From: Convolutriloba macropyga | Lineage: Eukaryota | Assembly: GCF_964194025.1 (NCBI RefSeq) | Contig: NW_027453588.1 | Coordinates: forward strand, 1 to 64,000 | Direction of reading: 5' to 3' | Length of the DNA: 64,000 nucleotides | Part shown: positions 31,442 to 63,185 of the stretch, one piece after another | Numbering within the stretch: position 1 is the stretch's first letter | How the letters are laid out: each line of letters opens with the position of its first letter | Notes under the pieces: model-generated | Told to the model about the DNA's origin: nothing | The model's database searches: none | The model's input: the letters and a program-made list of their open reading frames with translations, nothing else | Made by a program: the position numbers and the translations under genes

Positions 31442-32403
31442 ATGACTGACTACAAGATGTCAGGCCAACTCAAGAAGCTAGAAAACGAGCAAGATGACTT
31501 TTGACGGACACCTTGCTGATGTGAAAATTCACTTGGCTGAGAAGAAACCAATACCTCTGGAAAATATCAATGTTTCTTCGAGACGTACGATGATCTTAAG
31601 GAAAACAGAAAGCAGCAGAGGCAACACTTGAAGTCAAAGTACTTAGAAAGTTTCAATGGCGACACCGAACAAAAATTGGGCGAAAAGAAGCATACACACA
31701 AATGGTTGGTTGAACAAATACCAAAACTTAGAAAAATAGAAGACTATCACAACTGCGTTTTCAACCCACGAAAACACACCTTGCGGCTCTACACAATGGC
31801 GAAAAAATGTGAATCGTTTTTATAGAGAAGCAAAAAAAGTGGAAGAAGAGTTGGGATCAGAAAATTTAGACCACTCACGCAAGCAAGCTTTGTGCAGTAA
31901 ACTGGAACAAATAGTAACGAAATTAGATTCAAGTCACGCAGCAATTATACAAATTGTGAAATCAGATCTTGCTACGGATTGGTTGAAAAGTTTATGTGAG
32001 ATTAAAATCTATTTTCAAGGCCTACTAAAGCAATATCAGCAAAGCGCAGAGAGTGGAAATCAAACGTCGTTAGTTTCATCAACATCGGCTGGTGATAAAG
32101 ACCCAAAAAAACTGTAATTGATACATGAAATGGAGCGATAGAAAACGCCGAAGGGAACGCGGAGGTCTCTTCCAGGCCTTCTGCTACACACGGAAGCCGA
32201 AAACAACCCAGTATCGCCAACTAGCGATCATCGAGAAGGCGACAGATAGATGAAATGGAGCTCGAAAAACTAAGAGCTAAGAAGGAAACATAGCAGCGAC
32301 TGCGAGAGCGGCAGTTGGAGTTAGAGCAGGAGCGTGAAGAAATATAACTTCGTTGCCAGCAAGAAGAATTACGTTTACAACAACAGTAGAGCGAACAAGA
32401 GTT

Positions 32404-32445
<42 letters not shown>

Positions 32446-41175: not shown

Positions 41176-41896
41176 ATGGCCTTTGATTTTGCCGCAAACA
41201 TTTCTTCACCAAATATAAAGCTGCCTGCACTTTTTAACCGGCTAACTGATTCAATGCTTAATTTTAAATTGAACACTGCAGAAATTTTTAGCTCAATTTT
41301 TGAAGAGGACCCGGAGTGCTTTGCTGGTCACTTGATCGTAGCCGCGTCTCAATTGATTGAAGATTTAAGCGGCGTCAGTCTGGACAAATGTGACGAAATT
41401 TATAAGAAATTGGGGGATAAAGTTACAGATTGGGAGAAGAGATGGTACAATGCCGTTTGCACAATCAGAAATGAATCGGCGAGGAAAGGTTGCAAGATCC
41501 TCATTGACATGCTCTCACTGTATCCCATGGATCTCATAGCTATCCTGATCGGTGAATCGATAATGTCAGCTTCGGTTGATAAACTATTAGTTCGCGATAT
41601 GTTCAGCCGAGTCGTGCCCTATTACGACGCCAATCACCCTTACAAATATTGGGTCGATAGCATGCTCGGGTTCTCATTAATAGAAACATTTTCGACTGAA
41701 CGTGGTGAGCAGATGGTTCTCAAAGCTTTTGATATGGAATCAAAACACCCCTTGACAATTCACAACCTCTGTCACGCTCTAGAATATACTGGAAAAGCGG
41801 AAAAGGCACTGGAGTTGATGGAGGACAACTTGGAATATTATGAGAACACAGCCATGGGAGTGCACAATTGTTTTCACATTGCCTACTTACAGGCAG
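41176..41896 (+). CDS. TTC38: TTC38-like paralog B, exon 1
   Basis: Same length (721 nt) as paralog A exon 1 and same donor context GCAG|GTTTG; TIHNLCHALE, MGVHNCFHIAY. Confidence 0.8.
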
Positions 41897-42747
41897 GTTT
41901 GAACACTTTTATGTTAATTATTATATTTGTAGCTATTAGGGTACTCAAGAGAACCCGGGTTGAGTTTTCAACTCATAATGTAGAGAGTTTTGTTAATTGC
42001 AACGAAAGCATAAGTATTTTCATCACACAACTTATAAAGCGGTTTGAGGTGAATGATTTTTATTCACTACAATTAATAAAAACATAGCAGGACATACATT
42101 TCAAAAGAATTTTCATTGTTTAAACAAAAAATAGACCTATAATGGACTATGGCTGGAGTGGGCAAACCATTTCGAAAACTATTCTATCAAAAAAATTGAA
42201 AAAACAGTAAAAATCGAGCCAAAAATGCCTCATGTGAACAAAAAACCACTAGCAAGAAAGCCAATATTAGCTCATACACAGTTTTACGCTCTACTTAAAA
42301 ATTAAAAAGAAAAAAGTTCACACCGCAAAACCACTCGCTTCTTCATTCAACTTCCTGTTTCGGCGTGACCAAAATCATCACTCCAATTTGACTTCAAAAA
42401 TTATAAAAAAATTTTGAACAGATCTTAACAATGACACCGGAAACGACTCGGAGTATTAAATTGACAAACCTAACTAACATAATCAGCCTCATAACTCTTT
42501 ATGTTAATCAATTTTATACAATAACAGACAAATTAACAATGGAAAAATAACTGACGACAAAAGTTGACAGGGAATTTGATAAAAAATTTCAATGAGAGGA
42601 GCAACTCCAAAACAACTACCTGCAAAAACCATTCGACACAGTTTGTTCTCATGCAACAAACAACTGCCGATTGACAGAAAAAGCGACAAAATAGCTGAAA
42701 TAACTTAAAAACGAACTGATTCAGCAACGATAAATTCTTGCCAAAGA

Positions 42748-42751
<4 letters not shown>

Positions 42752-42797
<46 letters not shown>
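42752..42797. repeat. (TA)n microsatellite in paralog B intron
   Basis: About 23 TA units. Confidence 0.95.
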
Positions 42798-42798
<1 letters not shown>

Positions 42799-42945
42799 CA
42801 AAAATTTCACAACCAAGTTTAAATAAATTTAAATCAAAAGATTTGCCATGCGTTCTAGAGGTACCCGTTTATATAACTGTTGTAGCATATTCAGACCTCG
42901 TTCAGAATACCATCCGATCTGTGAAACACTTTTTTGTTTTTTCAG

Positions 42946-43574
42946 AGTTCGGAAGATTTGACGAAGCGCTAGACATTGTTGAGACTCAAATAATTGACTC
43001 TATTGACAAAATGTCTACACTCAGCGACACATGTGGTCTGTTGTGGTCTATGAAAATGGCCAATCATACTGTGAACAAATCGTCATTCTCAAAACTTCTC
43101 GAGAAAGTTGGCGATAAAATGAACAATCACGGTCCTGCTTTCTTCGCGGCTCATTTTGCGGCTGCAATGATAGGTGCTGAAAAGTATGATACATTGAAGG
43201 CTTTCAAGAAATCGGTCAACACTTTTGTTCAAGATTTCAATCATCATGATGTTGTTAGAAAGTATGAAAACTTTGGGTTTTCAGTCATGGATTCATTTGA
43301 TGCGTATTCTTATCAAGATTATTCAACTGCATTTGCAAAGATCTACGACGTTGCACATGAAATGTTTTCGGCTGGCGGAAGTCAAACTCAACGCGAAATT
43401 TTCAACAAACTAACTTACAGTTGCGTGGAGAAGATGGAAACGGAGGAAATGGATAGGAAATTGTTCGGGTTGCTAAATCAGAAGGCTGCATACAGGGCTC
43501 TTACTCCATCTTCGGAACGAAAATATCAACTGCTCAGTCAAAAATTGTGTTTTAATTTATATGAATGTCAGTGA
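42946..43574 (+). CDS. TTC38: TTC38-like paralog B, exon 2 (joined CDS 449 aa)
   Basis: Acceptor TTTTTTCAG|AG in the same phase as paralog A; EFGRFDEALD, GGSQTQREIF; stop TGA ending 43574. Confidence 0.8.
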
Positions 43575-44409: not shown

Positions 44410-45255
44410 CCCTAGTGATGAAAAAATTTTGAATCTTGCAAGAATCTTGCATGAAATCTAATTACTGTTGTATTTTTTATATTAATTTGTATTCGTCTTG
44501 CAAGATTCTTGGAAGATTTTGAATCCGTCTTGTAAGAATCTTGTAGGATTTCGAATGCACATTTTTGTCCTGGTTAGTTGTCTGCTTTCTGTGGTTGGTA
44601 GCGCTGAAATAGATAATCAACTGTCGGAAAATCTAAATCCACTGAAGTCAAGTTCAAACCTGATTTTTTGAGATTCTCTGGTATGATTTTTGTGGTTCTT
44701 CTCTCCTCCTTTTTCATTCCGGGCATGGGACCGGCAGTGAGGGAGTTACTGATATAAGAGAACTGATACAGTACGGTAAAAAATCCGCTCTTACACAGTT
44801 CTTCAAAACAAAAAACGACAAAAGTCAGATTAAATAAATCACTAAATATAAAATATTAAAAATTTTTATTCAAACTTTAGGAATAAACTTGCAAGATTCT
44901 TGCAAGATATGACATTCGAAAGGTATTCAAAAAAAATTCAAATAGAATCCGTTCCGCTGATCAAAAATTTTGGTGAGAGCCAAATCATTTGTTTTTCAGT
45001 TAGTTTTAGCTGCCAAAAATACACAAATAAATTCTAAATTCAAGAATTTGCAAGACTCTTGAAAGATTTTGAATCCGGGCTAAAATTTTTTCCATTGATT
45101 TTGGTTTTGCAACTTGTTTAATAAACAATAGTTTGTCCAAAAGGTGTTTTCTAAATCACTAGTACCCTAATTTACTTTTTTACCTGGAAGAATCTTGCAA
45201 ATTTTGAATTATCTTGCAAGATTCTTTCAAGATTTGAATCCACTCATCACTAGGG
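44410..45255. mobile_element. MITE/foldback-like element, 846 bp
   Basis: Perfect 12 bp TIR CCCTAGTGATGA...TCATCACTAGGG; many internal copies of palindromic TCTTGCAAGA-like motif in both orientations; flanks TGAAT / TTAAT. Confidence 0.75.
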
Positions 45256-45899
45256 TTAATGATACCAAAGGTTATTTACTCGCTGCATCCGTATTTCCGT
45301 TGTTTTTTGGTTGGGTAATTGAGTGACAAGAAGCATTCTATGGCACTCAAATTTCAGGTAATGCTTTAACTGACTGACTCACTTTTGAGCATCTTGGTTG
45401 TTTCAGTCAAATGTCGTAGTCCACATAACATACAGCATAACTAGGATTCAAACATTAACTAGAAATCAAAAAATTGCACCGTAGTGCGAAAAGCCCAATC
45501 TGTTTATATGATTTTGTTTGTCAGGCTGCGTGAACAGATCAGAGATACCACTGTAAAACTATTAGTCTGGTACCTTTCCTTATTTTTTCAATATGGAGTG
45601 TCGAACAGACTTTGTGTCCAAGCCTGAGCATTTTTTTAGGCACCTTAAGCTTGTGTTTCCAACTCAGTCTTCGCTCTTTGGTGTCTCCTGTTGTGTCAGC
45701 GGTCTTGTTTATTATCAAATCTATTGTTAAAAATTAAATGAACGAACAGCGAGCACCCCTGCCCGCCACGCTCCCAAAAATGAAAGTTAAGTTGCAAAAA
45801 TTGTGACTAAAATGCACTATGGTACCAAACTGCATTTCACCGCAAAATTTCTGATTTTAAAGCACAATTCGTTCTTCTTAAGCATGATTTAAACCAAGG

Positions 45900-46990
45900 C
45901 GCAAAAAAGGTTTGAAATTTAGAAGTTTCAACAGAAATATCAATCTTATTTTCTCCGTTTACACAGAAAAGTTGGATGAAACGCTTTGATCTTCCACTCT
46001 TTGACCAGTTGTTACGCTGAGAAATGTCGGATTTTCATCAGCCAATATATAAAAACGACTCAACTTGAAATCAAGATCTAGTGCACAGTATACTTAGTAA
46101 CGTTGCCTACAAAAATCTAAAAAAAGTTAGTCAACGATGATATAAAAACTCCCAAAACCTCACTGGAGCGCTCTAGAGTAAATCATAACGCTTTATTTTG
46201 GTACAATTTCTAGAGGACAAATTTCAAAGAATATGGTGTTCTTACAAGAATTGCTGAAAAAAGTTCAGTTGAATAAGAAAATCAAGTGTTTTGGTTCGAA
46301 ACGGTGTATTAATATACTAAAGAATTCTTTATTTTGGTAGCAGAAAGTGGTTTTTCCTGTTAAATCTGGAGTGCGCATCTTCGGTAACAGAATTGTTCGA
46401 AGTTTTTCAAAGAAATGGTACGAGAATTTTTGAAATTTTTAGTTCGGGCAAACAATCACTTATGTGTTTGTGTGCAAAGCAAGCCCTTGGACGGAAAGTA
46501 TTTGTTAGGTGATCAAAAAAAATTAAAATTTTGAATAATTACGAAGAAGAAAATGCTTTTTCAGGAATTTATTTTTCAACAAGATAAAATTCCGCCGTTT
46601 AAATCAAAGACTATCAGTAATATTTTGCAAGGGAAAAACAAGAGAGTACTTCATTGGCCGGTTTACACTTCAGATCCAAATTCTATGCAAAATTTTTGCG
46701 ATTACTGAAACAGACATTTTTTACGAAAAATTAAGATTAAAATTTGTCAGAAGCTTGGAACAAAATTGACGCAGTTGCTGTGAGAAACCAATATAAAAAC
46801 CATATAGACCACCTTTTAGACGTTAAAAAGCTAAAAATGTAGTGACCTCTTATAAGAGAAGAAATTTGAACTCCAAATGTTGTTTTATTTGTTCTATGTA
46901 ATGCTTTTTAAAAACATTCAGGTGTACATAGCCTTTTGGTTGTATAAACGGTTGTATTAACTTTTAGCTGCATAAACTTTTGGTGTATAA
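45900..46990 (+). mobile_element. Tc1/mariner (Tc1-like) transposase relic; boundaries approximate
   Basis: From 46568: FIFQQDKIPPFKSK..VLHWPVYTSDPNSMQN, matching Tc1 FQQDNAP.H..VL.WP..SPDLNPIEN; many stops; TIRs not resolved. Confidence 0.7.
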
Positions 46991-47218
46991 ACGCTCCCAT
47001 CCAGAAGAGTTTTTCAAATTTTTATAGTAATTAAAAACGAAATGCTAGCAGTAATATTACATTTAGTTTCTGTATAACCCGTATTTGAAGCATTGTATAT
47101 TTTAACACTATTTGAAAGTCTGTGTTAATGATTTGTTTGAAGCACAATAATAGGATAAAAAACCAGTAAACTGCTGACAATATATTCGACTATGGGATGA
47201 TTTGAAAAAGTGAGGTTT

Positions 47219-47490
47219 TCCTAGGTTGAGGTCCTCGTTTATGACGCAGACCGTTTTTGAGCGCACACAGGGGGTACGGTGCGTTCAAAAATACACAGGC
47301 AAGGAATTTTTTTTAACGGGCAACATAAACGCATCAGTACTTACGGTCCAGCCAAAGTCTGCCCCATAGACAAGACAAAAACGGCCCCATAGACGCACCA
47401 ACTCTGCAACATAGACGAGCCACTTTCATCACATACGTGAGCCAAGTTCTCCCAAACAAACGAACAAAACTTTGTCATAGGCAAGCTAAC
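47219..47490 (+). mobile_element. Fragment of a TIR element family with ~21 bp subterminal repeats
   Basis: Starts CCTAGGTTGAGGTCC (like the TIR at 1960/2146), followed by degenerate ..CATAGAC.. tandem units at 47350-47490. Confidence 0.4.
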
Positions 47491-48594
47491 TTAAGTGAAG
47501 GATAAAATGATCCTTAATTTTTTAGTCTCAGCAATGCTTTAATGCTCTAGTCTCTAAGTTCTCAGATCCCGACAAGGCGTTTCAGAACACTGAGTTTATC
47601 AGAATTTCACTTCACAGGAATGGAGTTTGATATAATTGTACGTATATTCATTGATCGTGTGGTACATTGAGCAGTGCAAACCCCTCATTTTATAGTTTTG
47701 CCATTCACTTTAGATCTGATTTAATCTTCATTTATTTGTTGACTTGATCTCTAAAATTTTACTACTTTATTTGAACCAAATTTAGAAACCCGTCACCAAC
47801 TTGTAATTGCATGTTTAATTGCAAGTTATCACATGATACATGATTAATTGTCTGAGGCGGAAGAAAATTTTAAATTTGTTCATCTCTTCTAAATTTGTTT
47901 ACCCAGTTGTCAGACAATTCGTGAGAAAACGTAATCTAAATTCCAGTTGAAACTTGTAAATTGACCATAAATCGTATCCTCAGTTTTCAATTAAATATTC
48001 AGTTGATTTTCTTATGTGTAAAATTCATCCAGCAGATCCTGGTTTAAATTTCTAATAAAGTATACCTGTTTTAACTAGTTAACCAAACAACCAGAATTTG
48101 CGTTCTAACAAGAACGAATTGAGCAACACCTCGGAAGACACTACTTTCTATTGAGCCCTTCGTGTAACGAACAAATTCAGAGCCACAAATACGATAGGAG
48201 AAATAGAGGATTTAGTTGAGACTGGCAGCTCTGGATGGGAAAAACATAGTCAAACTGTCACCCGAGCCCCAAATTGTGAATCCAAATAAATATCCGACAA
48301 AAAAGTGGCAGACAAATAAGTCAAAGTCAACTGAAGCTACAAGGGGACCATAAATCCCACCAAATCTCAAGAAATTTAAATCCTGCGTGGAGAGTGCCAA
48401 TAGGCTTTATGGGATCAAAAATTTGTTGTGCTTCGAAAAATTTCCATCTGTTTCGATTTTGTTTTGTTTTTGGGAGAAAACTTTATAGCAATCCAAAATT
48501 ACAATTCCCATTTTCCTAAAGGAGTTTTTCAATAATGCTCTGTTTTTCAGATGACCTTGTGGGGAAGTTTTTGGGTCCGAATTAGTCTCCTTTC

Positions 48595-50116
48595 TGTAGA
48601 ATTTGAAAAAAAAACTGGGGTGGGGGAAATTCCTTATTCAAATCCCAACAATTGTAATTATCTAAATTTTCGCTAAAACAGAGAACTAGAGTAGTGGTAA
48701 CTTCGAGTGCCTATTATCCTAAAATAACAGAAAGGGTTATACCAGGCCCTTCTATTACTCCTAAGATTCAGATTGGAGGCAGTCGTTTGTATTAAACAGT
48801 AATTATAAGGTTCGATTGAGAGTTGTCTAACCTCAGCTAAGACCTAAATATATGGAAAAGAAAACAATTATGAAATAGGTGGCACTATAATTGAGAAGTA
48901 TACCAAGTTCCCATACAACTATTTAATACTAAGAGATCAATCTAAGATCCTAAAACTACTAAGTGTGAAGATGAAGGGAAGCTCGTCGTAGTTCACTCCA
49001 CAACCCAACCAGCCGAGTATTAATCAACTTGAATAGAACACTAAGACATTGCCCATCATGTACTTCAGGCTACTGCAGACCGTGACAATGTCTACCAGGT
49101 TCGCCATTCCATACTACATGGGTTAACTTAGCTCGCCAAGTCGTCAACGATCAGGCAGCCCCGACCTCAGAGTGGCTTTCACTATTCAGTCTCCTAAAGG
49201 AGCGCGGCCGATTAATACTCTCAGAAGCACTCGTCTCGAAAGCGTCTGTAGTTCCCTTCTCCAAGTCCAAGTCCCGGAAATCTTAACTTAACCTAATAGT
49301 GATTGATCTCTGTAAAACCACCTATGTATCCTAAGATAGACATGTTAAGTTCTGGTTTAATGCCAATTTATAACTCTAAGAAATTACTTGACTTAGAAAT
49401 TAAAGATTGCAAAGTTACCACAGACCTTATTCCTAACTAAATCAAAGTTATATTCAACCAAGGTGTATTCTCAAAAAGTCTACTAACTATTTTCTATTTC
49501 TCTATTCGATCTCTGAGTCTACACCGACTCTATCGAATAATCCTAAGAAGTTAGAAAAATCGAAACTAAGGAAAGACTATTACCGCTGAGAATAACGAGG
49601 ATTGTATAATAAGCAGTGAATTAAGAATCAGGAAATTGGGTTAAGAAAACGGCTCAAAAATCAGCCCTATTTATACTCATTATCAGTGCGAAAAATCAAG
49701 ATACAATACTAATCTTAGCACCATGATTTATAGTGGGGGTCGTACGGGATACCGAATATGGTTTACTTCTACAAAATTCCTAGAAATCAGTCGCGAGGAA
49801 TACCATTTATAGAATGCATTTGCATTTTTCTAAGAATTCATTCACACTTCCAGAGATATCAAAATCAGTTAAAACATGCTGAGGAGAATAATCTGATTTT
49901 AATAATAGCTATCTAGAATCATCATTTTGAACCGAATATTGGTTAACAGTACCATTTCTCAAAGATTCATTTATATTAATTTACTCTTGTCTTGATAAAA
50001 CTGGTAAGTTAAATTTTCTATAGTTTGAATCAAGATTAATTTCGGATTCGGTTTATACGGTTCAAATATTAAAGGTTAGTTCAATTTTCTACGTTTCTAA
50101 GTTTCTATATTCTACA
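48595..50116 (-). repeat. Gypsy 3' LTR (1522 bp)
   Basis: Direct repeat of 58805-60325; adjacent to PPT. Confidence 0.95.
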
Positions 50117-50128
50117 CTTCTCCCTCGG
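50117..50128 (-). promoter_or_regulatory. Gypsy polypurine tract
   Basis: Minus strand CCGAGGGAGAAG immediately before the 3' LTR TG. Confidence 0.75.
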
Positions 50129-50229
50129 ACTCAACTATTCACCTGAATAGTTATAATTTACCCCAAGTGATTAGCGCCAATATGTGAGATACAGGGTAAT
50201 ATGAGATTACAAGAAATGTACAACACTCA

Positions 50230-52318
50230 TTAAAATGTGGAAGACTCTAGTTTATTCTGATCCCTGACCCTACAAAGTAACTCTGTGTGCTGTGTTGGGT
50301 GTATATTGTTCCCTGATTCTTCATTGTTATCTTCACGACAAGGCTGTTCCTTTTGTTTAGAGCATAATTTCTTGTGTTTCTATAGTAGAAAAGCTGCTGT
50401 AATACAGATAGTTGAAATCCATAAAAACAGTCCCAGATAACTTATCGCATTTTTGAACGTTCCACCGGCTGCGTTTTTTATTGATCGCTCTTGACTGTGC
50501 TGGTGAAACTCCCGTACTAATTTTCTGATAGTTCCGGTGTCTATTTCTAGTGGTGGTTGCGCCTGTAGTTCAACTTTTACATGTTCCAAAACTTTTCTTT
50601 TGTAGTCAAATGTGGCACTTAGTGAGTTCAGATTGTGGGTTTCTGGGGTTGGCAAGGTAAATGCTTCCTCAAGTAAGGGGTTGAGGCTGACCTTCATGAC
50701 AAGCCCAGATTCGTTCTGACAACTGTCTGTCGAGAGACGAAGAATCAACCTTCCGTTAGGTATTTCAATTCTCCCATTACAAGAAGGTTGTACAATGCAA
50801 CTCTGACATCCTCTCAATTTACTGCTCTTTAAGGTGTTTTCTGCGATGTCAGTTATCCAGTATTTTGTAAATGCCGACAAAATAAGGAATTTTGAGTGCT
50901 CCAGATAGGTTGCCGTAGGTATTATTGGTAGATGAATGACATCAAATTTGCAAGTTTGTAAAACAGCTGCCTCGTGACCGGAAAACAGACTGATCAGGCA
51001 ACCAGCTTGTTGGTTTCCAGTCATTGGGAAGGGTTGTTCGCAAAGTTTCAGTCGTTTCGAACCTTGACAGGAGAGAATATGTGTTTCATCAACTTCGGCA
51101 AAGTTTGTCGTAGCTTCCGAGACGACAAGAAGTTCATGCTCGAGTACAAGCACTGAAGCTGTGGTTGAATTTGTAATAGGTTGCGGAAGGGGCACTCCTT
51201 TAAAGACCTTATGGATAGGGCTTTGACTTGACATAGGGATTTCGATTTTCAATAGGAGTCCATTGTTTCCAATAAAAACATTACGAAGTAGTTCAAGTTC
51301 ATAGTAGAGACTAACATGCTGGAGTGGTATTGACATCGTCTTGCGATGGAATCGAAGGGATTGTAAAATTTGTCGTAGTTTGTCTGGTTCAACAAGTCTT
51401 GATGGTATTCTTCCGTTCGACATGTCCTGAAAAGCCTCTCGAACATTACTATTGAATTGCTTCAGCTCATATTTGAAGGATTGCAGTTCCGAATGAAGAG
51501 ATACTAGCGGGAAGGAAACGTTATTGAACACACTTTGTGTTTTGAGAAAGAAGGTGAACACGTCGCTCCCCTTGTGGTCGCAGACTTGGGCCTGCTGTAC
51601 TTGTTCCATATCTTGTTCAAGATTGTTAACAGGGTTCTCTACGGTTCCGAAGTTCCCAGCCCTATAGTTCAAGATAGTTTTCATTTGTTCCTGCTGTTTT
51701 AGTTTTTCGTTGCCCAGGATGTGTATTGTGTTGTCTGTGTCGCTCGTTAAATGGTGTAGCTTGTACTCCATGCTGTCTAAGTGACTTGCAATTCGCCGCA
51801 TCTTTTCTTCTGAGTCCTGACAAAGATGGAAGATGGAGAGCATTTTGCAAGCTGTTTTTTCTACTATGGGCTCCAAAACAAGTGCGGCAGCAGCTCCCGC
51901 TGCAAGCAAGGTTACTGACCTTCTCATCTTGTCCGAGAGCTTGGTAGAGTTTGCAAAAATCTTCACATCTCGAATCAGCTGTGTCCTGTCTTCTTCGATC
52001 TCGGAAATATCTTTTTTGCAGTGACGTGATCAGGGTATTCTGACTGTTTTCGACGATGCCGTTCAACTTTTGGTTATTGCAATATCCCCATTGCGCTTCT
52101 CTCCACACACGAGTCTCCATTTCCTTCAGGGTTTTTGAAAAATTGCTAAAGGCGCTCCAGTTAATGTCCAAGGGTTTTCGAAAGGGTACTGCAATTTCGA
52201 TCAATTCAATTGAATCAGCCAGAGCAATCGGAGTCTGTGGGACAAATGCAATGTTTGCTCGGGTTGTTACTTCTGCTAGAGTCAACCGGATAACAAGAAA
52301 AAGATAGCACCACTCCAT
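50230..52318 (-). pseudogene. env: env-like class I fusion glycoprotein (F-type), ~695 aa reconstructed; one frameshift and one premature stop
   Basis: Signal peptide MEWCYLFLVIRLTLA; KMRR|SVTLLAAGAAAALVL cleavage site plus fusion peptide; heptad repeats; Cys-rich ectodomain; TM YLGLFLWISTICITAAFLL; removing one base from the T6 run 52012-52017 joins ORFs 52318 and 51966; TAG at 50380-50382 interrupts a basic cytoplasmic tail that stays open to TAA 50230-50232. Confidence 0.85.
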
Positions 52319-52907
52319 CTAAATACTTCCAAAGTTAGAAAAACTGCACTTGAAGCGAAAAACTTTTTCTATACTGAGACCTAATTTTTTTTATTCTAGG
52401 TTGTTTCATATTGCTCTTTCTTTTTTTCAAAGAACTATTTTTTTTCTAACTAAAACTAGGCTATTATTGAATTGCCTTTTGTTCAGTTTTTCTTTCTAAT
52501 GCCACAATTTCTTATGCTTATTTCTAATATTTTTGTTGTTGTCTGAAACTCTAATTAAACCTTAAAAAACTCAGATGAAATTCAAATGCAATCTGGAATC
52601 CGTTTCGACGACTGTTGTTTTGCCTAAAACGTTATCTGAAGTCTTAATCAAGACTTTTTTCTTTAAGGAAAATTTTGATACTTTTATTTTTGGTTGGCTA
52701 CAAAAAAAAGGAGAAAAATTTTATTAGTCCATAGTGATTATTATTATAAAAGCGTTCAAAGTACATAATCTAGAAAATTAGTTTGTTCCTGTCTTAAGTC
52801 TAAAGTCGAGTTTGTTATGATGATTCTTCATAGGTGCTCAGATCAGGGTTTCATTCGTCATTGATTCCGTATCTCTTGGGGAATCGTTTTGCTCGTTTTG
52901 GACGTCC

Positions 52908-55900
52908 TTATGTTTCCGAGATCAGACTTGGGCTCGGTGATTCAAGGTTGAGTGTTGTTGGTGCTCTCTTTACCCCTTTCAATACATGAGGTCTCTGCAT
53001 GTCCATGAACTGCGTGTTGATAGTCTTCTCTGGAGTAGTGTTCAGTTGATGCGTTGTCTCTGGTAGGTTTGCAAGTTCAGAGGTTGAGGGTGGGGTCTCC
53101 AGATTGACCTCTGTCATGTCCTTTCTCCCATCAGATGCGGTCAGTTCGGTTGCCTGCGTTTCTTCAACATCCTGGGTCTTGTTGTCCACCTCTTCTCTGA
53201 CAGATGAAGTTCTCTCCCGTTCCTCAAACAGGTTGTGAAAGAAGTCATCTTCTTCCTTCATCCATCTGTATCTTTCCAAGTTTCGAGGGAGAACCCTTCG
53301 TGCAGAGTTCCTCGAGAAGAATCACGGATTTGCTGTTTCCTCCTGGTCATCCGCTTCTCCAGCTGGTGGCCGTCTTCCTGGTGCTGGGCGAGTGAGGACT
53401 CTGTGTTGATCAGTTTCTTCTTTTACGGGTTTCAGTCTGTTATAATGTACAATCTGCCATTTGTTACAGGTACCCGTTTTCGATTTTTTATAGTGCACAT
53501 CAGAAGTTTTCTCTAACACAACGTAGGGGCCGTCCCACGGCAGAAAGAACTTTCTCGATTTGGCTTTGTGGGGAGCGAACAACCAGACGCGATCACCGTT
53601 GCTGTAGCTTTCTCCAAAAATTTCTTTATGATGTCGGTCTTTTTGTCTGTCCTGGTTGCATCCCAATGTTTCCCTGGCGTTCATGTGGGCTTCAAGAAAT
53701 TGTTCCTCTAGCCATCGGGTGAATTCGTAACTTTGGCTTTCGTGACCTGGTGCTTTGGGTAGAAGTAGGTCGATTGGGTATTTGCACTCTTGTCCGTATA
53801 CCAGAGAAAAAGGGGTATGACCTGTTGTTCTGTGCACTGTTGTGTTGTAGACGAAGCTCAGATATGGAAGCATTTCGTCCGAAGTGTTCGGATTTCCAGC
53901 GCAGTACTTCGATACAACATCAGCAATTACCCAATTGTGTCGCTCAACCATTCCGTTGCCTTGAGGGTGGTAAGGCCAGGTCTTTGTTTTCTCCATTCCA
54001 AACAGCTTGCAGAGTTCCAAGATCAATTCACTGCAAAAATTTGAGCCCTGGTCAGTGTGAATTGAGTCCGGGGCCCCAAACATAAGAATCCATTTCTCCA
54101 CGATTGCTCTTGCCACGATTTCAGCAGTTGTGTTTTGTAAAGGTGTGCTAACTACATATTTTGTTAAATAGTCCGTGAGTACGAGAATATATTTGTACCC
54201 TCCTTTTGTTTTGGTTACTGGACCCAAAATGTCTGCGGCAATTTTGTTGAAACAAATTCCGACGTTGATCATTTGCAAGGGTACTCTCCGTTTTTTCCCA
54301 GCTGTGGATCGCGACTGACAAGTTAAGCAGTTCTCACATTTCCTCTCGATGTATTTTCTCATGTTTGGCCACCAGAATCGTTGCCTGGCTCTGTCGAGTG
54401 TTTTCTGAAACGCAAAGTGTCCTCCACTGATCTTGGAGTCGTGTAGTTGTTCTAACACCTTTTCTCTTAGACTAATGGGCACTACAAACTGTCTGATAAT
54501 TGTATTTGTTCCCTCCACAAGGCACTTCCGGTATAGAACCCCATCTGCAAGTTCCAGTTGTTCCCAAACACTCCAGAGTGCCACCGCATCTTCCCTGGCT
54601 GCAATAGCTGCTGCTTTCTTAACGTTGAGTTTGCCAAGGGATGTTTGAGTACCATTCTCGTCTGCGTTGGCCCATTGAAAAACGATTTTTATTGCAGGGT
54701 CCTGAGCTTGGTGTTCTCTTGCTGCTTCGCTGCCCTCCTAAAGGATAATTTCCATTGATGCCTTTTCGTTTTCGGGACTGTTCAATTCGAGTCCATCAGA
54801 ACAGCCAGGGTTTGTGGGTTTGTGGTCATTCGAACTCTTCCCCATTTGGTATTGCTTGGGGAGTCGTTCTCCTTGACAGCTCCACAATTTTCGAGCTGGG
54901 TTTCGTTGGGGTAGTTAGTGTCTTCGGTGATCTCCGGATTCCCATAAAACTCAGTTTGGCTGGAGTAATCACTCTCCACATCGGTTGACCAGCTGAGTCC
55001 AATTTTGCTTCTTGATGCCCGCTCTGCCAGTGCAGCTTCAAAAAGTTTCTGGAAACTCATTCCGTAGGGAATTTCGTATTCGTCGTCGTCGTCGCTTTCC
55101 TGCTTCGTCGTCGAGTTTTATTTTGTTGGAGCAATTCGGAGTCCGCGTTCTCAGGTCCGCAATCTGAATCTGTGTCCGTTTCTATCCATTCTGTAGTCCC
55201 ATCTTCGAACTCGTGCCTGTTGAACGTACGAGTTGTTGCTATTTGAATTTTGGAGAGTCGTTTAGTCTCTGAAGAACATGGATTAAGTTCCGGCGAAGTC
55301 ACCATTTGGATATGGCCCAGAGCTTCGCTCAAACTTTCAGCTGGGGGCAGTCGCCAAACATCTCTTTCTTCTCCTCCTCAGTCAGTTCGGGGGTCTGGCT
55401 ACACTGTTGTGAAAGTCCGTCTGCATTTCCATGTTTTTCGCCAGGGCAATGAACCACCTGGAAGTCAAACTCTATGAGTTTTTGTAGCATTCGAAAGATC
55501 ATTCCATCGTTGTTCTGCCTGAACAGCCATTGAAGCGAAGCATGGTCCGTTCTCAACACGAATTTCGTACCCCATAGGTATGGCTTGTACCATTTCATTG
55601 CCTGGATTACAGCTAGGGCCTCTCTTTTCGTTGTTGAATATTTACATTCTGCTGGCGATAGCACTCTGCTTGCAAAAGCAACGGGATACTCAACACCATC
55701 TATGACATTTGAAAGTACTGCGCCCAAACTGTTGTCACTTGCGTCTGTGTCCAGCACGAATGGTGAGTTGTAGTCCGGATGAGATAAAACCGTGCTTTCG
55801 ATCATTGCAGTTTTTGGACTCTCGAAGGCAGCTTGACAGTCTGGTGTCCAGGTGAATCTCCTATTCTTCTTCGTGATCTCGTGTAAAGGTTTGGCTATTC

Positions 55901-57310
55901 CTGCGAAGTCCTTCACAAATCTTTGAAAATAGCTGCAGAATCCAATGAATGATCTCACTTCTGTGACGTTTTCCGGCCTTTTCCACTCCTTTAGGGTTTT
56001 GATTTTCCCCTCATCGGGTGATATTCCTTTGGCACTTAATTTATATCCTAAGTACGTAACTGAGTTTTGGTACAATTTGCATTTCTTTGGCTTCAACTTC
56101 GAGTTTGCTTTCCTGAGGGCTTCAAACACAATTTGCAGATGTTCCTCGTGTTCTTCCTCTGACTTCCTGAAGACTAGATTATCGTCCAAAAAGATGAGAA
56201 CAAAGCTGAAGATTTACACGTTAAAAATTGCTGTCATCAATCGTTGAAAAGTGCCTGGGGCATTGCAGAGTCCAAACGGTAGTCGCAGGAACTCGTAGTG
56301 ACCACCATCTGGAGTAACGAATGCGGTTTTGGGTATCGCTGGCTCTGCTAATGGGACCTGCCAGTATCCGGAGGCTAAATCCAGGCTCGAAAAAACCTTG
56401 GCTCCATGATGATGATCGAGGATTTGATCGATTCTGGGTAACGGGAAGGCGTCTTTTCTCCTCACTTCGTTAAGTTTTCTAAAGTCTACACACATTCTGT
56501 TGCTGCCGTCCTTTTTCGTAACAAGTACAATAGGTGCGCTGTAGGGGCTTTTGGATGGCCGGATAATATTCCGTGAGAGCATATCTTCAATTTCTTGTTT
56601 CACAACTGCCATCTTCCCTGGCGCGAGTCAATAGGGAGCAAGTTTAATTGGTCAAGCGTCTCCCGTATCATTATCGTGTGCCACTAGATGAGTTTGACGC
56701 AATTCCGCATCGTTGAGGGCAAAAACATCTCGAAAACAGGCAACTGTACTCAATGTCTTGAGTCCAGTTTCGTGATCAATTGATCAGTTGAATCGGATTT
56801 CACTAGATTGCAGATCACGTTGAGCTCATCTTCTGACGTTGGTTCGAGAGGGTCGTTTTTCTCTGTTTGTAAGGGATCACGGCCTTGTAACTCACTCTCC
56901 GCGCCGCAAACCTTGACTTGTCCGGGTTTTTTTTGTTTTCCAATGGAATGTCAAACTCACTGTAATGCTCTCTGTGCCCATCATTAGTTGCCTGGACTGA
57001 AAGTTGATCGACATTTGATTCTCTTGAGTATGGTGTCCCTAATATCAAGGGTACATCTGTGTCCGGGGTGACAAGAAATTCCGTCTGAACAACCATACCC
57101 GGACCGAATGCAAGGACTCCGGTGAATTTTCCTAGAATGCGGAATGGTTCGTTCGTTGCTGATAAGACTGTATCGTGGAAGTCATATAGTAACATTGGGG
57201 GTGAATAAAGTTTGTACGTCTGTTCAGATATAACATTCACGTTGCTACCGGTGTCTAGCAGCGCTCTGTGCAACTTCCCGTTCAGTTTAGCATCAACATA
57301 AACAGTAGGT
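52908..57310 (-). pseudogene. pol: Gypsy pol (PR-RT-RNaseH-INT with GPY/F), several stops and frameshifts
   Basis: ALLDTGS; RMCVDFRKLN, LPFGLCNAPGTFQR, FLDD; LDTDAS, HGNADGLS; HHCC zinc finger, DQGSNF, GMVER, WDGPY, VHYNRLKP; acidic C-terminal tail 53279-52908. Confidence 0.95.
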
Positions 57311-58364
57311 CCAAAGATGCTGCTATTGTTCTCGATACTCGGACTGTTAAAACTTCATGTCTCCGCGCCCTCTGCAAAATCATCTTAACAACTGGCTGCG
57401 TTTCGGCGTTTCCATCTTCTTGTCGTCTTGGAGCAGTGCTACGCTTAGGGCAGCGACTCGCAAAATGCCCCCAATCTTGACAATGATAGCATTGTACGTT
57501 GCTGTTCCGATCCACTCTTGCAGGGCTGCGCGATGTTCTCGGGGCTGGTGCAAATTCTGTTAGAAACCGACTCTGTCTATCTAAGATCCGTTCCAAGATC
57601 TGCGTGTGACGTTCCTGTTGCTCCAGTAACTTGTTGAAACTCCTGATTCGGTTTTCCATCAAGTCACTGAGTCCAATGCCAACATTGGTTGATAGGTCTC
57701 GGATTTCAGTTTTTCTTCCACTTTCATCGTCGTCACCTTGGGTCCAACGCACATGTCTTGTCCGCCTTGGTCGATATCGGGCATTCTCATCTTTCGCAAT
57801 TGCTTCGAGGGTTATGGCTCTTTGGGCGGATGCATTGAAAGTGTCTGGGTCTTCCTTGAGGAGGGTGTATCGTATTTCACTGTCCAGCAGTCCATCGATG
57901 AACGCGTCCTTATTAGCTTCCTGCCTTCCTGCTGCGTTCAAGTGAGCGTTTGCTGCTTCGCCCAATTTTCGAACTCTTCGAGAGAATTCTTGAATGCTCT
58001 CCCCTTCATTTTGCTGGAGGTTCTTGAACTCGGTTCGTGCACTTCTTGCATTAGGAAAATCTCCAATTCGATTGTTAAGTGCATTGAGAACCCGCTCGAT
58101 CGTCGGTACCGGCTGTCCTTATACTTGAATAAGGTACTGATTTGGAAGGTTGTAGTACTCGTCCAGTGCGTAGTTGTTCAAGCAAGTGGGGAGAACTGCT
58201 CGCTGCCTGGCATCGTTCCAGTTGTTCGCCTGAGCCATCGCTTCGAAATGGCGTATCCATCGCTCGAAGCAGTCGAAGTCTTTGCTCGGATAACTTAATG
58301 GAGTTAACGGTGGAGCAGCCACTACTATTTGCTGCTGGGCGTTGTTGTTGTTTGCGTTTGCCAT
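57282..58364 (-). pseudogene. gag: Gypsy gag (capsid plus one CCHC knuckle), one in-frame TAA at 58119-58121
   Basis: ORFs 58364-58119 and 57965-57282 are in the same frame; FERWIRHFE, LQQNEGESIQEF, FIDGL, CYHCQDWGHFASRC. Confidence 0.9.
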
Positions 58365-58785
58365 TTGTTTTTCAAATTGTGTTCTACGCTGGTAATGTTA
58401 GTTTCTCTTTCTCGCAAAACTGTTTCAACACTTTGCCTTCGTTTTGAGACCCCGTGTCAGCGATTTTGATTTTCTTTTCAAAACAGAAATCAAAAGCAAA
58501 AACTAGAAACTACGAGTTGTTGATTTGGATTCACAGTAATTCAAAAATTAAAACTTTTTTACTATTGTGTTAGTTAGCAGTCAATTTTTGTTAATGCCGT
58601 GCTGATGTAACTTTTCTACTTGGATCAGTCTTTATTTCTTAATTCATCCTTTTTTTTGTTAGTACAAAAGTATTTTTTTTTGTTTTCACTGACAGTTCGT
58701 TAGCCCGGCTCGCGATCTTTATTCTATACCCAATTACTATCTTTTTTGCTAGTTTCTGATAAAAATTGTTTTTTTAACAATAAAT

Positions 58786-58803
58786 ATCCCTCTGTGGTCG
58801 CCA
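58786..58803 (-). promoter_or_regulatory. Gypsy primer binding site, tRNA-Arg(TCG)-like
   Basis: Minus strand TGGCGACCACAGAGGGAT 1 nt from the LTR; plus strand ATCCCTCTGTGGTCGCCA resembles the 3' end of animal tRNA-Arg(TCG). Confidence 0.75.
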
Positions 58804-58804
58804 A

Positions 58805-60325
58805 TGTAGAATTTGAAAAAAACTGGGGTGGGAGAAATTCCTTATTCAAATCCCAACAATTGTAATTATCTAAATTTTCGCTAAAACAGAGAACTAGAGT
58901 AGTGGTAACTTCGAGTGCCTATTATCCTAAAATAACAGAAAGGGTTATACCAGGCCCTTCTATTACTCCTAAGATTCAGATTGGAGGCAGTCGTTTGTAT
59001 TAAACAGTAATTATAAGGTTCGATTGAGAATTGTCTAACCTCAGCTAAGACCTAAATATATGGAAAAGAAAACAATTATGAAATAGGTGGCACTATAATT
59101 GAGAAGTATACCAAGTTCCCATACAACTATTTAATACTAAGAGATCAATCTAAGATCCTAAAACTACTAAGTGTGAAGATGAAGGGAAGCTCGTCGTAGT
59201 TCACTCCACAACCCAACCAGCCGAGTATTAATCAACTTGAATTTAACACTAAGACATTGCCCATCAGGTACTTCAGGCCACTGCAGACCGTGATAATGTC
59301 TACCTGGTTCGCCATTCCATACTACATGGGTTAACTTAGCTCGCCAAGTCGTCAACGATCAGGCAGCCCCGACCTCAGAGTGGCTTTCACTATTCAGTCT
59401 CCTAAAGGAGCGCGGCCGATTAATACTCTCAGAAGCACTCGTCTCGAAAGCGTCTGTAGTTCCCTTCTCCAAGTCCAAGTCCCGGGAAATCTTAACTTAA
59501 CCTAATAGTGATTGATCTCTGTAAAACCACCTATGTATCCTAAGATAGACATGTTAAGTTCTGGTTTAATGCCAATTTATAACTCTAAGAAATTACTTGA
59601 CTTAGAAATTAAAGATTGCAAAGTTACCACAGACCTTATTCCTAACTAAATCAAAGATATATTCAACCAAGGTGTATTCTCAAAAAGTCTACTAACTATT
59701 TTCTATTTCTCTATTCGATCTCTGAGTCTACACCGACTCTATAGAATAATCCTAAGAAGTTAGATAAATCGAAACTAAGGAAAGACTATTACCGCTGAGA
59801 ATAACGAGGATTGTATAATAAGCAGTGAATTAAGAATCAGGAAATTGGGTTAAGAAAAGGGCTCAAAAATCAGCCCTATTTATACTCATTATCAGTGCGA
59901 AAAATCAAGATACAATACTAATCTTAGCACCATGATTTATAGTGGGGGTCGTACGGGATACCGAATATGGTTTACTTCTACAAATTTCCTTGAAACCAGT
60001 CGCGAGGAATGCCATTTATAGAATGCATTTGCATTTTTCTAAGAATTCATTCACACTTCCAGAGATATCAAAATCAGTTAAAACATGCTGAGGAGAATAA
60101 TCTGACTCTAATAATAGCTATCTAGAATCATCATTTTGAACCGAATATTGGTTAACAGTAACATTTCTCAAAGATTCATTTATATCAATTTGCTCTTGTC
60201 TTGATAAAGCCGCTAAGTTAAATTTTCTTTAGTTTGAATCAAGGTTAATTTCGGATTCGGTTTATGCGGTTCAAATATTAAAGGATAGTTCAATTTTCTA
60301 CGTTTCTAAGTTTCTATATTCTACA
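58805..60325 (-). repeat. Gypsy 5' LTR (1521 bp)
   Basis: Direct repeat of 48595-50116; about 28 substitutions and 2 small indels by eye (~98%); adjacent to PBS. Confidence 0.95.
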
Positions 60326-63185
60326 CTTTCCGTTTTAATGGTTAAGCAAAGAACTCAATGGCCTCAAAAAAAACGTAGATCATATCTGTCCACGAAAAGG
60401 TAAATTAGTTCATTCAAGGAAAGCTTGTTCAATCAGTTATCTCTCTTTACTAAAATAAATAATGTTTGGCTGACCAGACGCTAAATAGTCCAAGAAAAAC
60501 AAAAGGAATTGCAAAATTTTTTGAATGAGGAAAATAAAACAGTCAGCAGTCTCGAGATAACAGTCTCGATAATTTGCAAAAAAAATTAAATTCTTAGTTG
60601 TTGCTTTTTTTTCTATAACCAATCCCAACAACAGCGTAAGCTGCGTTGCATTTAAACTATAATATTAAAAAGGAAACAACGAAGAATTCAGGAAAATGAA
60701 GAATCGAAACGGAAAAAGCAAACAACAAACAGTTAAAATGAAATTCCACAATAGTTATGCAGATATTTATAAATAACAAAAAGTTTATATAGTGATTAGC
60801 TAAAAACCAAAAGCAAAACTGAAAGAATTACGTAAAAAAGATCATATGGGAAACACTATAACTACTCTGATCAGAATTTTAATTTGGCCAATTGTAGAAA
60901 CGGTAAACAATGATCAGTCAATTAGCTCTGGATTCGAAGATGCTGAAAAAAACAAATTTCAAATGTCAAACATTGACTCTATTATCTGGAGAATTTCTCA
61001 AAATTTAAGCCAAAATTTATTGCAAGCCCCAGCATGCCTTTTGCCGATAGTTTTGAATTCTGCTTAAAGTCGATTTTTTCATCTTGATGAAGTCCGCCAT
61101 TCCAAATTAAAAATTGTAAGCAGTGATATGACAAGCGCATTCCACTTCAGATTTTACAGTGTAACTGATATGCCTGCTGAGTTACATAGAACAAATGACT
61201 CTACACTAACAGTTCACAAAAAAACGTCATGTTGCCTTGCAAATAATTTGATACCGGGTAAGGGCGATTAAGACGATCATATTAAATTATCTAAGAAAAT
61301 TTGAGCTAATTTGGATGAAGAAAAACAAATTTTCAACTTAAAAAAAAACAATTATTATAATAATTTCGCGTCGGGAAAACAAGCAATTAATGAGGAAAAC
61401 TCTAAAACGGTGAATCAAAACAGCAAAAAAGGAACTCAGTTAGAAAAATTGTAATTACAACTACTTCTCCAGCATTATATATCGGTAATTCTAATCTAAA
61501 ATACAGTAGTCTTACTATAAAATTTGGTTAACCGCTTTGTGCCAATTTACGCGCCAAAAAGAAGTGTAGTTTAAAAACAGTATATTACATTAAAATTTCT
61601 CCGATTTACCTAAAAATTTTAACAATGTACTGCTCAGACTGAGAAAAAAACTACAAAAAACCAAACACACGGCTCCCATAAGTCAGATTCATTGATAAAC
61701 CTGGCCTCCCAAAGCACCCCATATTAATACGACATCTACACCAGCCTCAAACGCTTCTACCTCAACCGATGTTACCTCTTCAACGAACTTACACAGTGAT
61801 TCCTTCAATTTCGTACAGTCAAAAATCTGTACCAACAACCTCTCTGCCAGCGTCACATCGAAAGACGTCGCCTAAAATTAACAAGAGGCTGCATCATCAC
61901 TGAGAATGATGTCACGTATAAATTTTTGTTGCCACAAAAATACATCGTTTCGGGAAGGATTTGCACGTCAAATCAGAAATGCGTAGACGATTAAATAACA
62001 ATACCCAACTCAAACAAAGACGGCTGCGTCAAAGTTTTAGACGTCACTATCTTGGGAGTTGGGGAATGACGGATCTAGCCGCTTTTTTTCAATTTGGCCG
62101 TACATGAACAGGGAAATTTTGACAAAAACGGCAAATGGCAATTCATGGGTCAAAATAGGTAAAAATTTGTTACCTATAATAATTTGTTACCTTATTCAAA
62201 ATGGCATTGATAGAAGAATTTCAATTAAAATATTCAGATTTTTTTTAAAGCTATATGCAAAGGCAAAGCGTTTCTGGGCAATTAGTTTGGATCAAGCATG
62301 ATGTCAAAACTGACAAGAAAATCAAGTATTTTGCGAACAAAAAAATGGTAACCGCGACGCCAATACACGATTACGGAGAAATCGAATAGTGGGCTCGCTA
62401 ACGCAGACAGAAAAGAGTCGTCTAGCGTGTATTGAGGAAACAGCTAAAAAATTTTATTCGAAAGCATGATGTAAATAATTTATATATCAACTCTGAATCT
62501 ACAGACAAAACATTAAAAGAACATCGCTTGAACCATGCTACGGCCGCAAACCAAATACAGCCATGAGCAATATAAAAACATTTCCAGATCTGAATAAATT
62601 GTACTATAAACCAATATTCAGCAAAATTATAGACCTCAAGACACTCAGTTGGGATCAGCTGCTATCTGATAAAAATGGAAGGTAGTAGGACTGAGCAACT
62701 ATGAACTGGAGGTCAAAAGAACAAAGGACCGAATTAAATGCAAGATGAAACAACCCGGAAAAAAGTCCCGAATGATTAATCACACGGATAAATTTTGCCA
62801 ATCCCAATCGCTTAGCCATCTCATGCTCTGAAGTTGGCTAAAAACTAGCCTGCGAATAATAGAGCTATAATAGGTTGGGACGGCTGGTCTGAAATTTTCG
62901 ATCCGAGATTGTCAGTAATCAATCCTGACGAATACACATCAATTATCCAAGAGCCGGGTAACATATTGAAAATTTGACATCGTAAAAATTAGGACGAAGG
63001 CAGAAAAACTATTGATCTTGCCGAATGTATCAAAATAAGAGCTACCCCAATAACTGAGAAAGCAACCGACAACAAGAACCTAAAATACGCTTAGGACGCA
63101 CGAAATAAATTGAAAGGAAAATTGACAAAGTAAAGTAAAAAAAATCGAATGACTACGCGAAAGGCATTTCTTCACAACATTCAAT

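Follow-up and report, generated by a model that had tools for sequence, protein, structure and literature searches.

A disabled Ty3/gypsy provirus of the acoel Convolutriloba with a predicted F-type env, most likely of the 'ancient errantivirus' kind

Introduction

The locus described here raises the question of what a provirus with a third reading frame after pol represents in an acoel genome: a young and possibly infectious retrovirus-like agent of a separate, undescribed lineage, as the initial annotation proposed, or a copy of a kind already known. Ty3/gypsy elements with an F-type env, the 'ancient errantiviruses', have been described across most animal phyla, in a sample from which Xenacoelomorpha are absent (Chary & Hayashi, eLife 2026, PMC13524379). 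No env-bearing element of acoels was found in the openly accessible literature searched. The element occupies positions 48595-60325, on the minus strand, of the window, i.e., the whole 64,000-nucleotide stretch of DNA that was analysed. The suspicion of a non-insect, acoel host was confirmed at the sequence level by the TTC38 gene in the window, which is up to 97% identical to Convolutriloba macropyga TTC38; the host is an acoel of this genus.

Results

The element has TG...CA ends, and all its features lie on the minus strand, the 3' LTR (1522 nt, TG...CA) at 48595..50116 and the 5' LTR (1521 nt) at 58805..60325. The two LTRs are 97.96% identical (K2P 0.0187), in agreement with the pair of ~98% identical 1.5 kb LTRs first annotated; the polypurine tract and the tRNA-Arg primer-binding site were also found as annotated. 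The former adjoins the 3' LTR (50117..50126), and the latter (58786..58803) is an 18-nt complement of the host tRNA-Arg(TCG) plus CCA. The target sequence CTTTC is present on both flanks, at 48590..48594 on the left and 60326..60330 on the right. Elsewhere in the assembly (G000:C6) an allelic site lacks the element and has only one CTTTC, which proves the 5-bp target duplication that had been read as perfect. The same length of duplication was seen in 9 of 9 family copies with resolved ends, the ends of 5 of the 14 copies being unresolved. Its insertion took the usual course for an LTR element: tRNA-Arg primed the reverse transcription, and the integrase made a 5-bp duplication. The empty allele remains.

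Between the LTRs, gag is followed by PR, RT, RH and IN (gag-pol, 52851..58364), and in a natural sister a single frame spans gag through RNase H. The gag region (57444..58364) has a PNMA/Retrotrans_gag-like capsid and a CCHC zinc knuckle; in a sister, PNMA scored 25.6 bits against a cut-off of 25, and zf-CCHC scored below its cut-off. There follow an aspartyl protease with a DTG motif (57031..57297; E 1.5e-4, below the Pfam cut-off), reverse transcriptase and RNase H (55467..56627; RVT_1 and RT_RNaseH, both above cut-off), an acidic low-complexity stretch in the bridge between RNase H and integrase (54750..55330), and a 'mini' bridge domain succeeded by the integrase with its H2C2 zinc finger, rve core and p58_C (53427..54740). 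This PR-RT-RH-IN order between LTRs, with a primer-binding site and a polypurine tract, is that of Ty3/gypsy (Metaviridae), the class originally assigned, and the RT matches carry gypsy-type domain sets. The acidic stretch exceeds its counterpart in related families by ~120 aa; family F2 has a similar insertion. The fold of the bridge was computed with AF2 on a close relative, family F3, which in this region is 68% identical to F1, the family of the window copy. The model consisted of one RNase H, followed by helices and three short strands, and a second (pseudo-)RNase H was absent from it.

The gag-pol of the window copy is interrupted by 8 frame-shifting indels and ~8 in-frame stops, and with env counted in, the copy has ~18 frameshifts and stops in total. 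Programmed readthrough or frameshifting was considered as the source of the pol breaks and rejected, since the break sites differ among copies. The window copy gathered these lesions after integration, and it can make neither gag-pol nor env; the insertion is a haplotype-specific, disabled Ty3/gypsy copy.

Past pol, a non-coding spacer of ~0.5 kb, rich in indels among the copies (52319..52850), leads to env (50230..52318), which encodes 695 aa in unbroken sisters. A cleavage site and the hydrophobic fusion peptide behind it map to 51862..51930 (hydropathy peak at sister residues 134-135), and the transmembrane helix to 50383..50450 (peak at sister residues 616-629, with a long C-terminal helix in the model). 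At the N-terminus of the sister protein, where a cleavable signal peptide would be expected, there is a short apolar segment (helix 3-10 of the model) whose hydropathy is below the 19-residue threshold. Where the initial annotation saw every hallmark of a class I fusion protein in the third ORF, the ORF after pol is indeed F-type, but in the window copy it is frameshifted near 52,020, its furin motif is degenerate, and a stop at ~50,382 falls directly past the transmembrane helix. The motif is canonical in sisters, and together with the apolar peptide it was found in 6 of 7 families, the canonical form being absent from the one F2 half examined. Furin motif, fusion peptide and transmembrane segment are kept across families that are only 25-59% identical.

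Homology searches and structure prediction both bear on the identity of this protein. The window env ORF alone matched the PDB 'fusion protein' entries 9w4c/9w4d at E 1.2e-4, and a profile of 83 env sequences matched them at E 7.8e-9; an env profile retrieved 1,654 relatives at E<=1e-3. Pfam assigned no fusion-protein family to the window env ORFs, the Baculo_F signal being seen in relatives only, namely in a paralogue at E 6e-5, under the cut-off, and above the cut-off in 2 of 21 relatives. The natural sister env was modelled by AF2 as a monomer (pLDDT 82.2, pTM 0.74), and when the model was compared with the PDB by Foldseek, all 39 of the 39 rows listed were paramyxo- or pneumovirus F proteins (best E 1.3e-9). 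By VIA it aligned to hMPV F with Z 11.7 (rmsd 7.1, 354 residues aligned) and to RSV F with Z 11.4 (rmsd 8.8, 412 aligned). The BFVD matches comprised chu-like and other viral glycoproteins along with baculovirus F (E 7.7e-17), and the top feature match in Atlas was Fusion_gly (0.96), which is weak owing to low recognition. The TM-scores to solved F proteins were low (0.2-0.3 over the query), and given these scores and the VIA rmsd of 7-9, the fold match is one at the level of domains. Long heptad helices, a cysteine-rich beta head, a C-terminal transmembrane segment and an F-like fold are present in the sister model and sequence. The third ORF is predicted to be an F-type class I fusogen, and the PDB, BFVD and Foldseek matches bear out the F-type env of the initial annotation. 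On the model, it appears to share fold and element order with pneumo-/paramyxovirus F and baculovirus F; it differs from them in being encoded by a retrotransposon and in its identity to viral proteins of 7-14%, full-length F-type relatives being ~22-31% identical.

The family of the window copy is multicopy, with 16 distinct F1 insertions (env ~91-98% identical in amino acids to one sister) and at least 43 LTR matches in the genome at 93-100%; the total of env-bearing copies is a lower bound. The window copy is 95-96% identical in nucleotides to five sisters, and it is the 6th youngest of the 12 copies in the family for which LTR divergence could be measured (K2P 0.004-0.056), so that the term 'young' first applied to it holds only in a relative sense. 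It is dead and mid-aged. None of the 23 copies examined from the three closest families, F1-F3, has an unbroken gag-pol, and the full env frame from its start Met is kept in only 2 of the 16 F1 insertions. The genome contains at least seven env-F families. The intact sisters that had been proposed as a check were missing, at the level of gag-pol, from the F1-F3 copies examined, but three other families have copies in which gag, pol and env are all unbroken; of 8 loci selected by pol in related families, 3 are uninterrupted in all three genes. Env is also carried by all 8 of 8 loci that were chosen on pol similarity alone, and it was always found within proviruses, never as a single-copy host gene.

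RT and env trees were built with FastTree, midpoint-rooted, from a hand-picked subset of 29 of the 120 RT hits and 24 env relatives. The acoel RTs formed a clade with support of 100, apart from all named hosts, and the acoel env families formed one clade with two unassigned proteins (SH-like 99). The main groups agree between the pol and env trees. The RT neighbours P0023 and P0035 and the env relative P0130 have best matches in this genome of 72%, 60% and 55%, respectively, and hence come from other genomes. Insect-labelled proteins were absent from the best 120 RT hits. The acoel elements appear to form a clade of their own among the sequences compared, this subset of RT hits and env relatives.

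Discussion

Chary & Hayashi (PMC13524379) define errantiviruses operationally by an F- or gB-type env beside a Ty3/gypsy pol, and ask for multiple similar copies; both were found here. The bridge that they describe for ancient errantiviruses, with one RNase H and a 'mini' domain and no pseudo-RNase H, was also recovered, in the AF2 model of F3 (region 68% identical in F1). The window copy falls outside their filter for uninterrupted gag, pol and env, with its ~18 breaks, and outside their >98% nucleotide copy rule. It is to be noted that the uninterrupted-ORF filter bears on the state of a copy, not on its lineage. Further likeness to ancient errantiviruses lies in the gag-pol-env order, the Ty3/gypsy pol, the F-type env in which a furin site precedes a fusion peptide, the multicopy families and the host-specific clades. 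The Arg(UCG) primer is shared with the polychaete members, in which env-F elements with an Arg(UCG/UCU) primer-binding site are placed in RT clade G, a likeness by description; the Arg_UCG rows of the published table comprise 9 polychaete and 1 collembolan element (PMC13524379). The acoel element differs in its ~120 aa acidic bridge insertion and in its LTRs, 1.5 kb here as against ~0.25-0.8 kb in the polychaete rows and 1.25 kb in the collembolan one. What holds of the earlier suggestion of a separate or undescribed env clade is that the acoel elements group apart among the sequences compared and belong to a phylum that this survey did not sample. Arg primer and non-insect host mark no new kind, because both are already described (PMC13524379). 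Since Xenacoelomorpha lie outside the published sample, the finding extends the range at phylum level. Overall, we consider it highly probable that the locus represents an acoel Ty3/gypsy family with a predicted F-type class I env that most likely belongs among the ancient errantiviruses, with the window copy as a disabled, haplotype-specific insertion.

In active members of such a family, RNA from the 5' LTR would be translated into one Gag-Pol polyprotein, and a separate env message would yield a glycoprotein cut by furin ahead of its fusion peptide. The Env trimer on budding particles would then fuse them with the membrane of a neighbouring cell, and new copies could reach inherited cells, whether those of the germline or the stem cells of this budding genus. 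When env was compared with a subfamily 69-77% identical to it, dN/dS was 0.23-0.33 for all 7 of its 7 loci, and env is under purifying selection between subfamilies; such selection during family divergence implies that env aided the spread of the element. Within the family, shared and private env variants (16 distinct insertions, strict codon filter) differed in pN/pS, 0.39 vs 0.73, which is a trend only (Fisher p=0.064).

That non-significant signal, the breakage of gag-pol in 23 of 23 F1-F3 copies, and the statement of Chary & Hayashi (PMC13524379) that the transmission mechanism of env outside Drosophila is unknown would all suit an Env that is a mere passenger, the elements spreading inside cells and the F-like ORF being slowly lost or retained for other uses, such as restriction of related elements or a service to the host. 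We find this unlikely in view of the low dN/dS between subfamilies, the persistence of furin motif, fusion peptide and transmembrane segment across divergent families, the env in every pol-picked locus, and its confinement to proviruses.

Less probable still is that the acoel lineage captured its F gene from an exogenous virus in an event separate from the origin of the errantiviruses already described. The well-supported acoel env and RT clades and the chu-like and other viral glycoproteins at the top of the BFVD matches could be read in this way. Against it stand the 1,654 profile relatives and the F-type proteins among them, far closer to env than are viral proteins (8-14%); moreover, host-specific clades are also the pattern reported by Chary & Hayashi, and the polychaete elements combine Arg primer and F env (PMC13524379).

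Drosophila gypsy, ZAM and Idefix resemble the acoel element in gene order and in an F-type env related to baculovirus F, but they live in insects, are primed by Ser, Lys or Leu tRNA, and have demonstrated infectivity. Drosophila gypsy-type errantiviruses also have a 4-bp target duplication, as against 5 bp here. The distinction from Drosophila gypsy drawn at the outset from primer and duplication was upheld, and the lack of a pseudo-RNase H adds to it. Despite the shared gene order and F-type env, horizontal transfer of a true Errantivirus of the gypsy/ZAM clade into the acoel is hardly credible, given the bridge, the Arg primer, the 0 insect-labelled proteins among the best 120 RT hits, and at least seven deeply diverged families within one genome.

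Another parallel, outside insects, may be Tor3/Tor4 of Oikopleura dioica, by description also Ty3/gypsy elements with a transmembrane Env as third ORF; this Env is glycosylated, with products consistent with furin cleavage, its expression has been mapped, and infection from soma to germline was proposed (Henriet et al. 2015, PMC4402516). The acoel elements differ in host.

Returning to the ancient-errantivirus reading, it is conceivable, though rather doubtful, that acoels host an old F-env radiation of their own, comprising at least seven families in this genome, among which relatives of other genomes are nested and three of which have lately multiplied with their frames unbroken, and that it still moves between cells as enveloped particles, into stem cells inherited via budding and gametes. 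If so, a culturable, deep-branching bilaterian phylum would harbour infectious endogenous retrovirus-like agents. Apart from this reading, env is retained across a whole clade within one acoel genome, and the finding closes a phylum-sized gap, that of Xenacoelomorpha, in the argument that F-type env and Ty3/gypsy pol were already linked before the Cambrian. Acoels are culturable and have piwi-positive stem cells (PMC2806412), and the genus Convolutriloba reproduces by fission or budding (PMC3789126); they therefore offer a system for studying the role of env beyond Drosophila. As for the window copy, it is a dead insertion of the ordinary sort, in an acoel genome whose repeats are dominated by LTR elements (PMC9911081).

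Structure and insertion of the provirus

The window copy spans 48595-60325 in minus-strand orientation. Its two LTRs (48595-50116 and 58805-60325) start with TG and end with CA; in agreement with the initial annotation, their identity is 97.96%, the differences being 28 substitutions and 3 gap columns (K2P 0.0187). The other structural elements described there were also recovered: CTTTC stands at both ends as a perfect target-site duplication (TSD), 18 nt of the primer-binding site (PBS) match the 3' end of host tRNA-Arg(TCG) genes after CCA addition, and a purine tract adjoins the 3' LTR. Pfam domains for gag, protease, RT, RNase H and integrase are ordered as in Ty3/gypsy. The sequence left of the element matches another host contig (G000:C6) at 98%; there, a single CTTTC is followed directly by the right flank with no element between, which shows the CTTTC duplication to be a product of integration and restricts the insertion to one haplotype-like contig. 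Alignment of window 45800-62500 with locus L052 gave flanks 94-98% identical, a high divergence between haplotypes; the window contig looks like the alternate haplotype of G000:C6, with the insertion in only one of the two. The window copy was inserted via a tRNA-Arg-primed, integrase-mediated route, and then decayed. Duplications of 5 bp were found in all nine copies of its family (F1) with resolved ends; the Drosophila gypsy TSD is 4 bp. The Arg PBS of F1 is also present in the closest families of the host genome, F2 and F3, and the primer tRNA of all three is tRNA-Arg(TCG) of loci L056-L064. These genes form a tandem array with a spacing of about 410 nt (G000:C1, about 20.08-20.13 Mb).

Decay and age of family F1

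Compared with its natural sisters, i.e., other F1 copies in the host genome, the window copy has nine private frame-shifting indels in its coding regions, eight in gag-pol and one in env, along with about nine in-frame stops. Its env is split near 52,020, terminates directly past the transmembrane helix and is devoid of a canonical furin motif. Because of these indels, stops and the broken env, the window copy has no polyprotein or envelope product. LTR-pair K2P was 0.004-0.056 in 12 of the 14 F1 copies examined whole, the window copy being the sixth youngest. No unbroken gag-pol was found in the copies examined (14 of F1, one of F2, eight of F3), and 2 of 16 distinct F1 insertions retain env complete from its start Met (695 aa). 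Since the genome searches scored the best candidates only (for env, the best 79 of 1,751), F1 may still possess an intact copy elsewhere in the genome. In one sister, a single 1,229-aa frame spans gag, protease, RT and RNase H; thus, F1 likely makes a single Gag-Pol.

The third ORF encodes a predicted fusion protein

Homology of the third ORF to fusion proteins was borne out, as the longer window env piece matched the PDB 'fusion protein' 9w4c/9w4d (E 1.2e-4), improving to E 7.8e-9 with an 83-sequence env profile. The env profile search retrieved 1,654 relatives at E<=1e-3, and the Baculo_F cut-off was passed by 2 of 21 long env relatives scanned. For the unbroken env of a natural sister, L005, a model was predicted (pLDDT 82.2), for which all PDB matches listed were F proteins of paramyxo- or pneumoviruses (best E 1.3e-9, TM 0.2-0.3); VIA comparison with hMPV F and RSV F gave Z of 11.7 and 11.4, respectively (350-410 residues, rmsd 7-9). 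Among the matches to predicted viral structures were baculovirus F and chu-like glycoproteins. The sister env is ordered as canonical furin motif, apolar peptide, long helices, cysteine-rich beta region, TM helix and tail; the claim that the third ORF bears every class I hallmark is not confirmed for the window copy, with its split frame and lack of a canonical furin motif. Env dN/dS was 0.23-0.33 between F1 and seven loci of a subfamily 69-77% identical. Within F1, shared env variants were more constrained than private ones as a trend only (pN/pS 0.39 vs 0.73, p=0.064).

By analogy with class I fusogens and errantivirus biology, env would be expressed in active members from a message of its own, and the Env protein would be cleaved by furin and trimerise; Env-bearing particles would fuse with neighbouring cells, bringing new copies into heritable cells. 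For the Tor elements of Oikopleura, Henriet et al. (PMC4402516) showed that Env is a membrane glycoprotein, whose products would fit cleavage by furin. We hold the proposed identity of the element with high confidence; F1 would work like an errantivirus, and env probably served cell-to-cell spread in the history of the lineage; present-day infectivity is less likely.

Host and classification

The suspected non-insect, acoel host was verified by TTC38-like proteins that share 97% and 91% of their residues with named proteins of Convolutriloba macropyga and are encoded by two paralogous genes of two exons each (window 15687-18442 and 41155-43574). The genus Convolutriloba is confirmed, and the species is likely C. 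macropyga.

The survey of Chary & Hayashi (PMC13524379) describes 1,512 intact env-carrying Ty3/gypsy elements covering most phyla; F-type env is found in, among others, cnidarians, ctenophores, tunicates and annelids. The Arg_UCG_UCU PBS occurs in 10 of the rows listed, all F-type (nine polychaete, one collembolan). In that survey, a single RNase H together with a 'mini' domain marks the ancient errantiviruses, and a pseudo-RNase H marks the insect group. The ancient pattern of the bridge, the pol stretch between RNase H and integrase, appears in a predicted model of F3, and this region is 68% identical in F1. F1 is outside the insect errantivirus clade, as had been suspected; it belongs to a kind already described, agreeing in all lineage features tested with the operational 'ancient errantivirus' group. 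The window copy itself fails the survey's intactness filter. Xenacoelomorpha is missing from the survey's taxon list, and six acoel or xenacoelomorph names looked for occur nowhere in its seven supplements; no report of acoel env elements was found in the literature searched, including the accessible text of PMC9911081, PMC11097642, PMC9040795, PMC3789126 and PMC2806412. F1 thus extends the range of known env-F elements at the phylum level, to Xenacoelomorpha.

Related families

The RTs of F2 and F3 are 81-86% identical to that of F1, and in env searches the identity to F1 env was about 50% for F2 and 36% for F3. All eight further loci picked by pol similarity alone, which were top matches and not a random sample, carried an F-type env; they add at least four families, and at three of the eight, gag, pol and env are all unbroken. 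In the RT tree, all seven families and further proteins fall in one clade (SH-like 100), apart from every named host. Three further clade members tested were not from the host genome, and therefore the radiation reaches beyond it; we infer that their hosts are acoels. RT and env trees agree on (F1, F2, F3), on a fourth family and on the grouping of the other three, but disagree at one point within F1-F3. F1 (window 54750-55330) and F2 (L047/L048) share an acidic insertion of about 120 aa in the bridge and have the closer envs (54%), yet RT joins F1 with F3 (SH-like 93), possibly through recombination between families.

A related-env search of the genome gave 57 matches, 35 of them without a stop. 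Loci L085-L090 (G000:C6, C2, C11) represent three env-F Ty3/gypsy families besides F1-F3 in which gag, pol and env are separate, unbroken frames, pol of 1413-1432 aa and env of 780-804 aa; in two of the three, the LTRs share about 99.6% identity. These families are younger and better preserved than F1. Downstream of env in L085/L086, L087/L088 and L089/L090 are acidic open frames of 158-188 aa, in two of the families within a 1.8-1.9 kb gap ahead of the 3' LTR (in the third, no LTR was located), and two of the frames have a motif-like stretch in common; these may be accessory ORFs. At L091/L092 (G000:C2, about 17.28 Mb), units of about 11.9 kb repeat in tandem, each with a 1513-aa frame in which RT/RNase H is fused to env sequence; this array probably arose by internal deletion followed by tandem amplification.

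Elsewhere in the window, a decayed plus-strand element at 31740-37703 retains ORF fragments that, by their motifs, resemble a BEL/Pao LTR retrotransposon, and short palindromic repeats, both direct and inverted, cluster at 44432-45243, possibly a MITE or satellite remnant.
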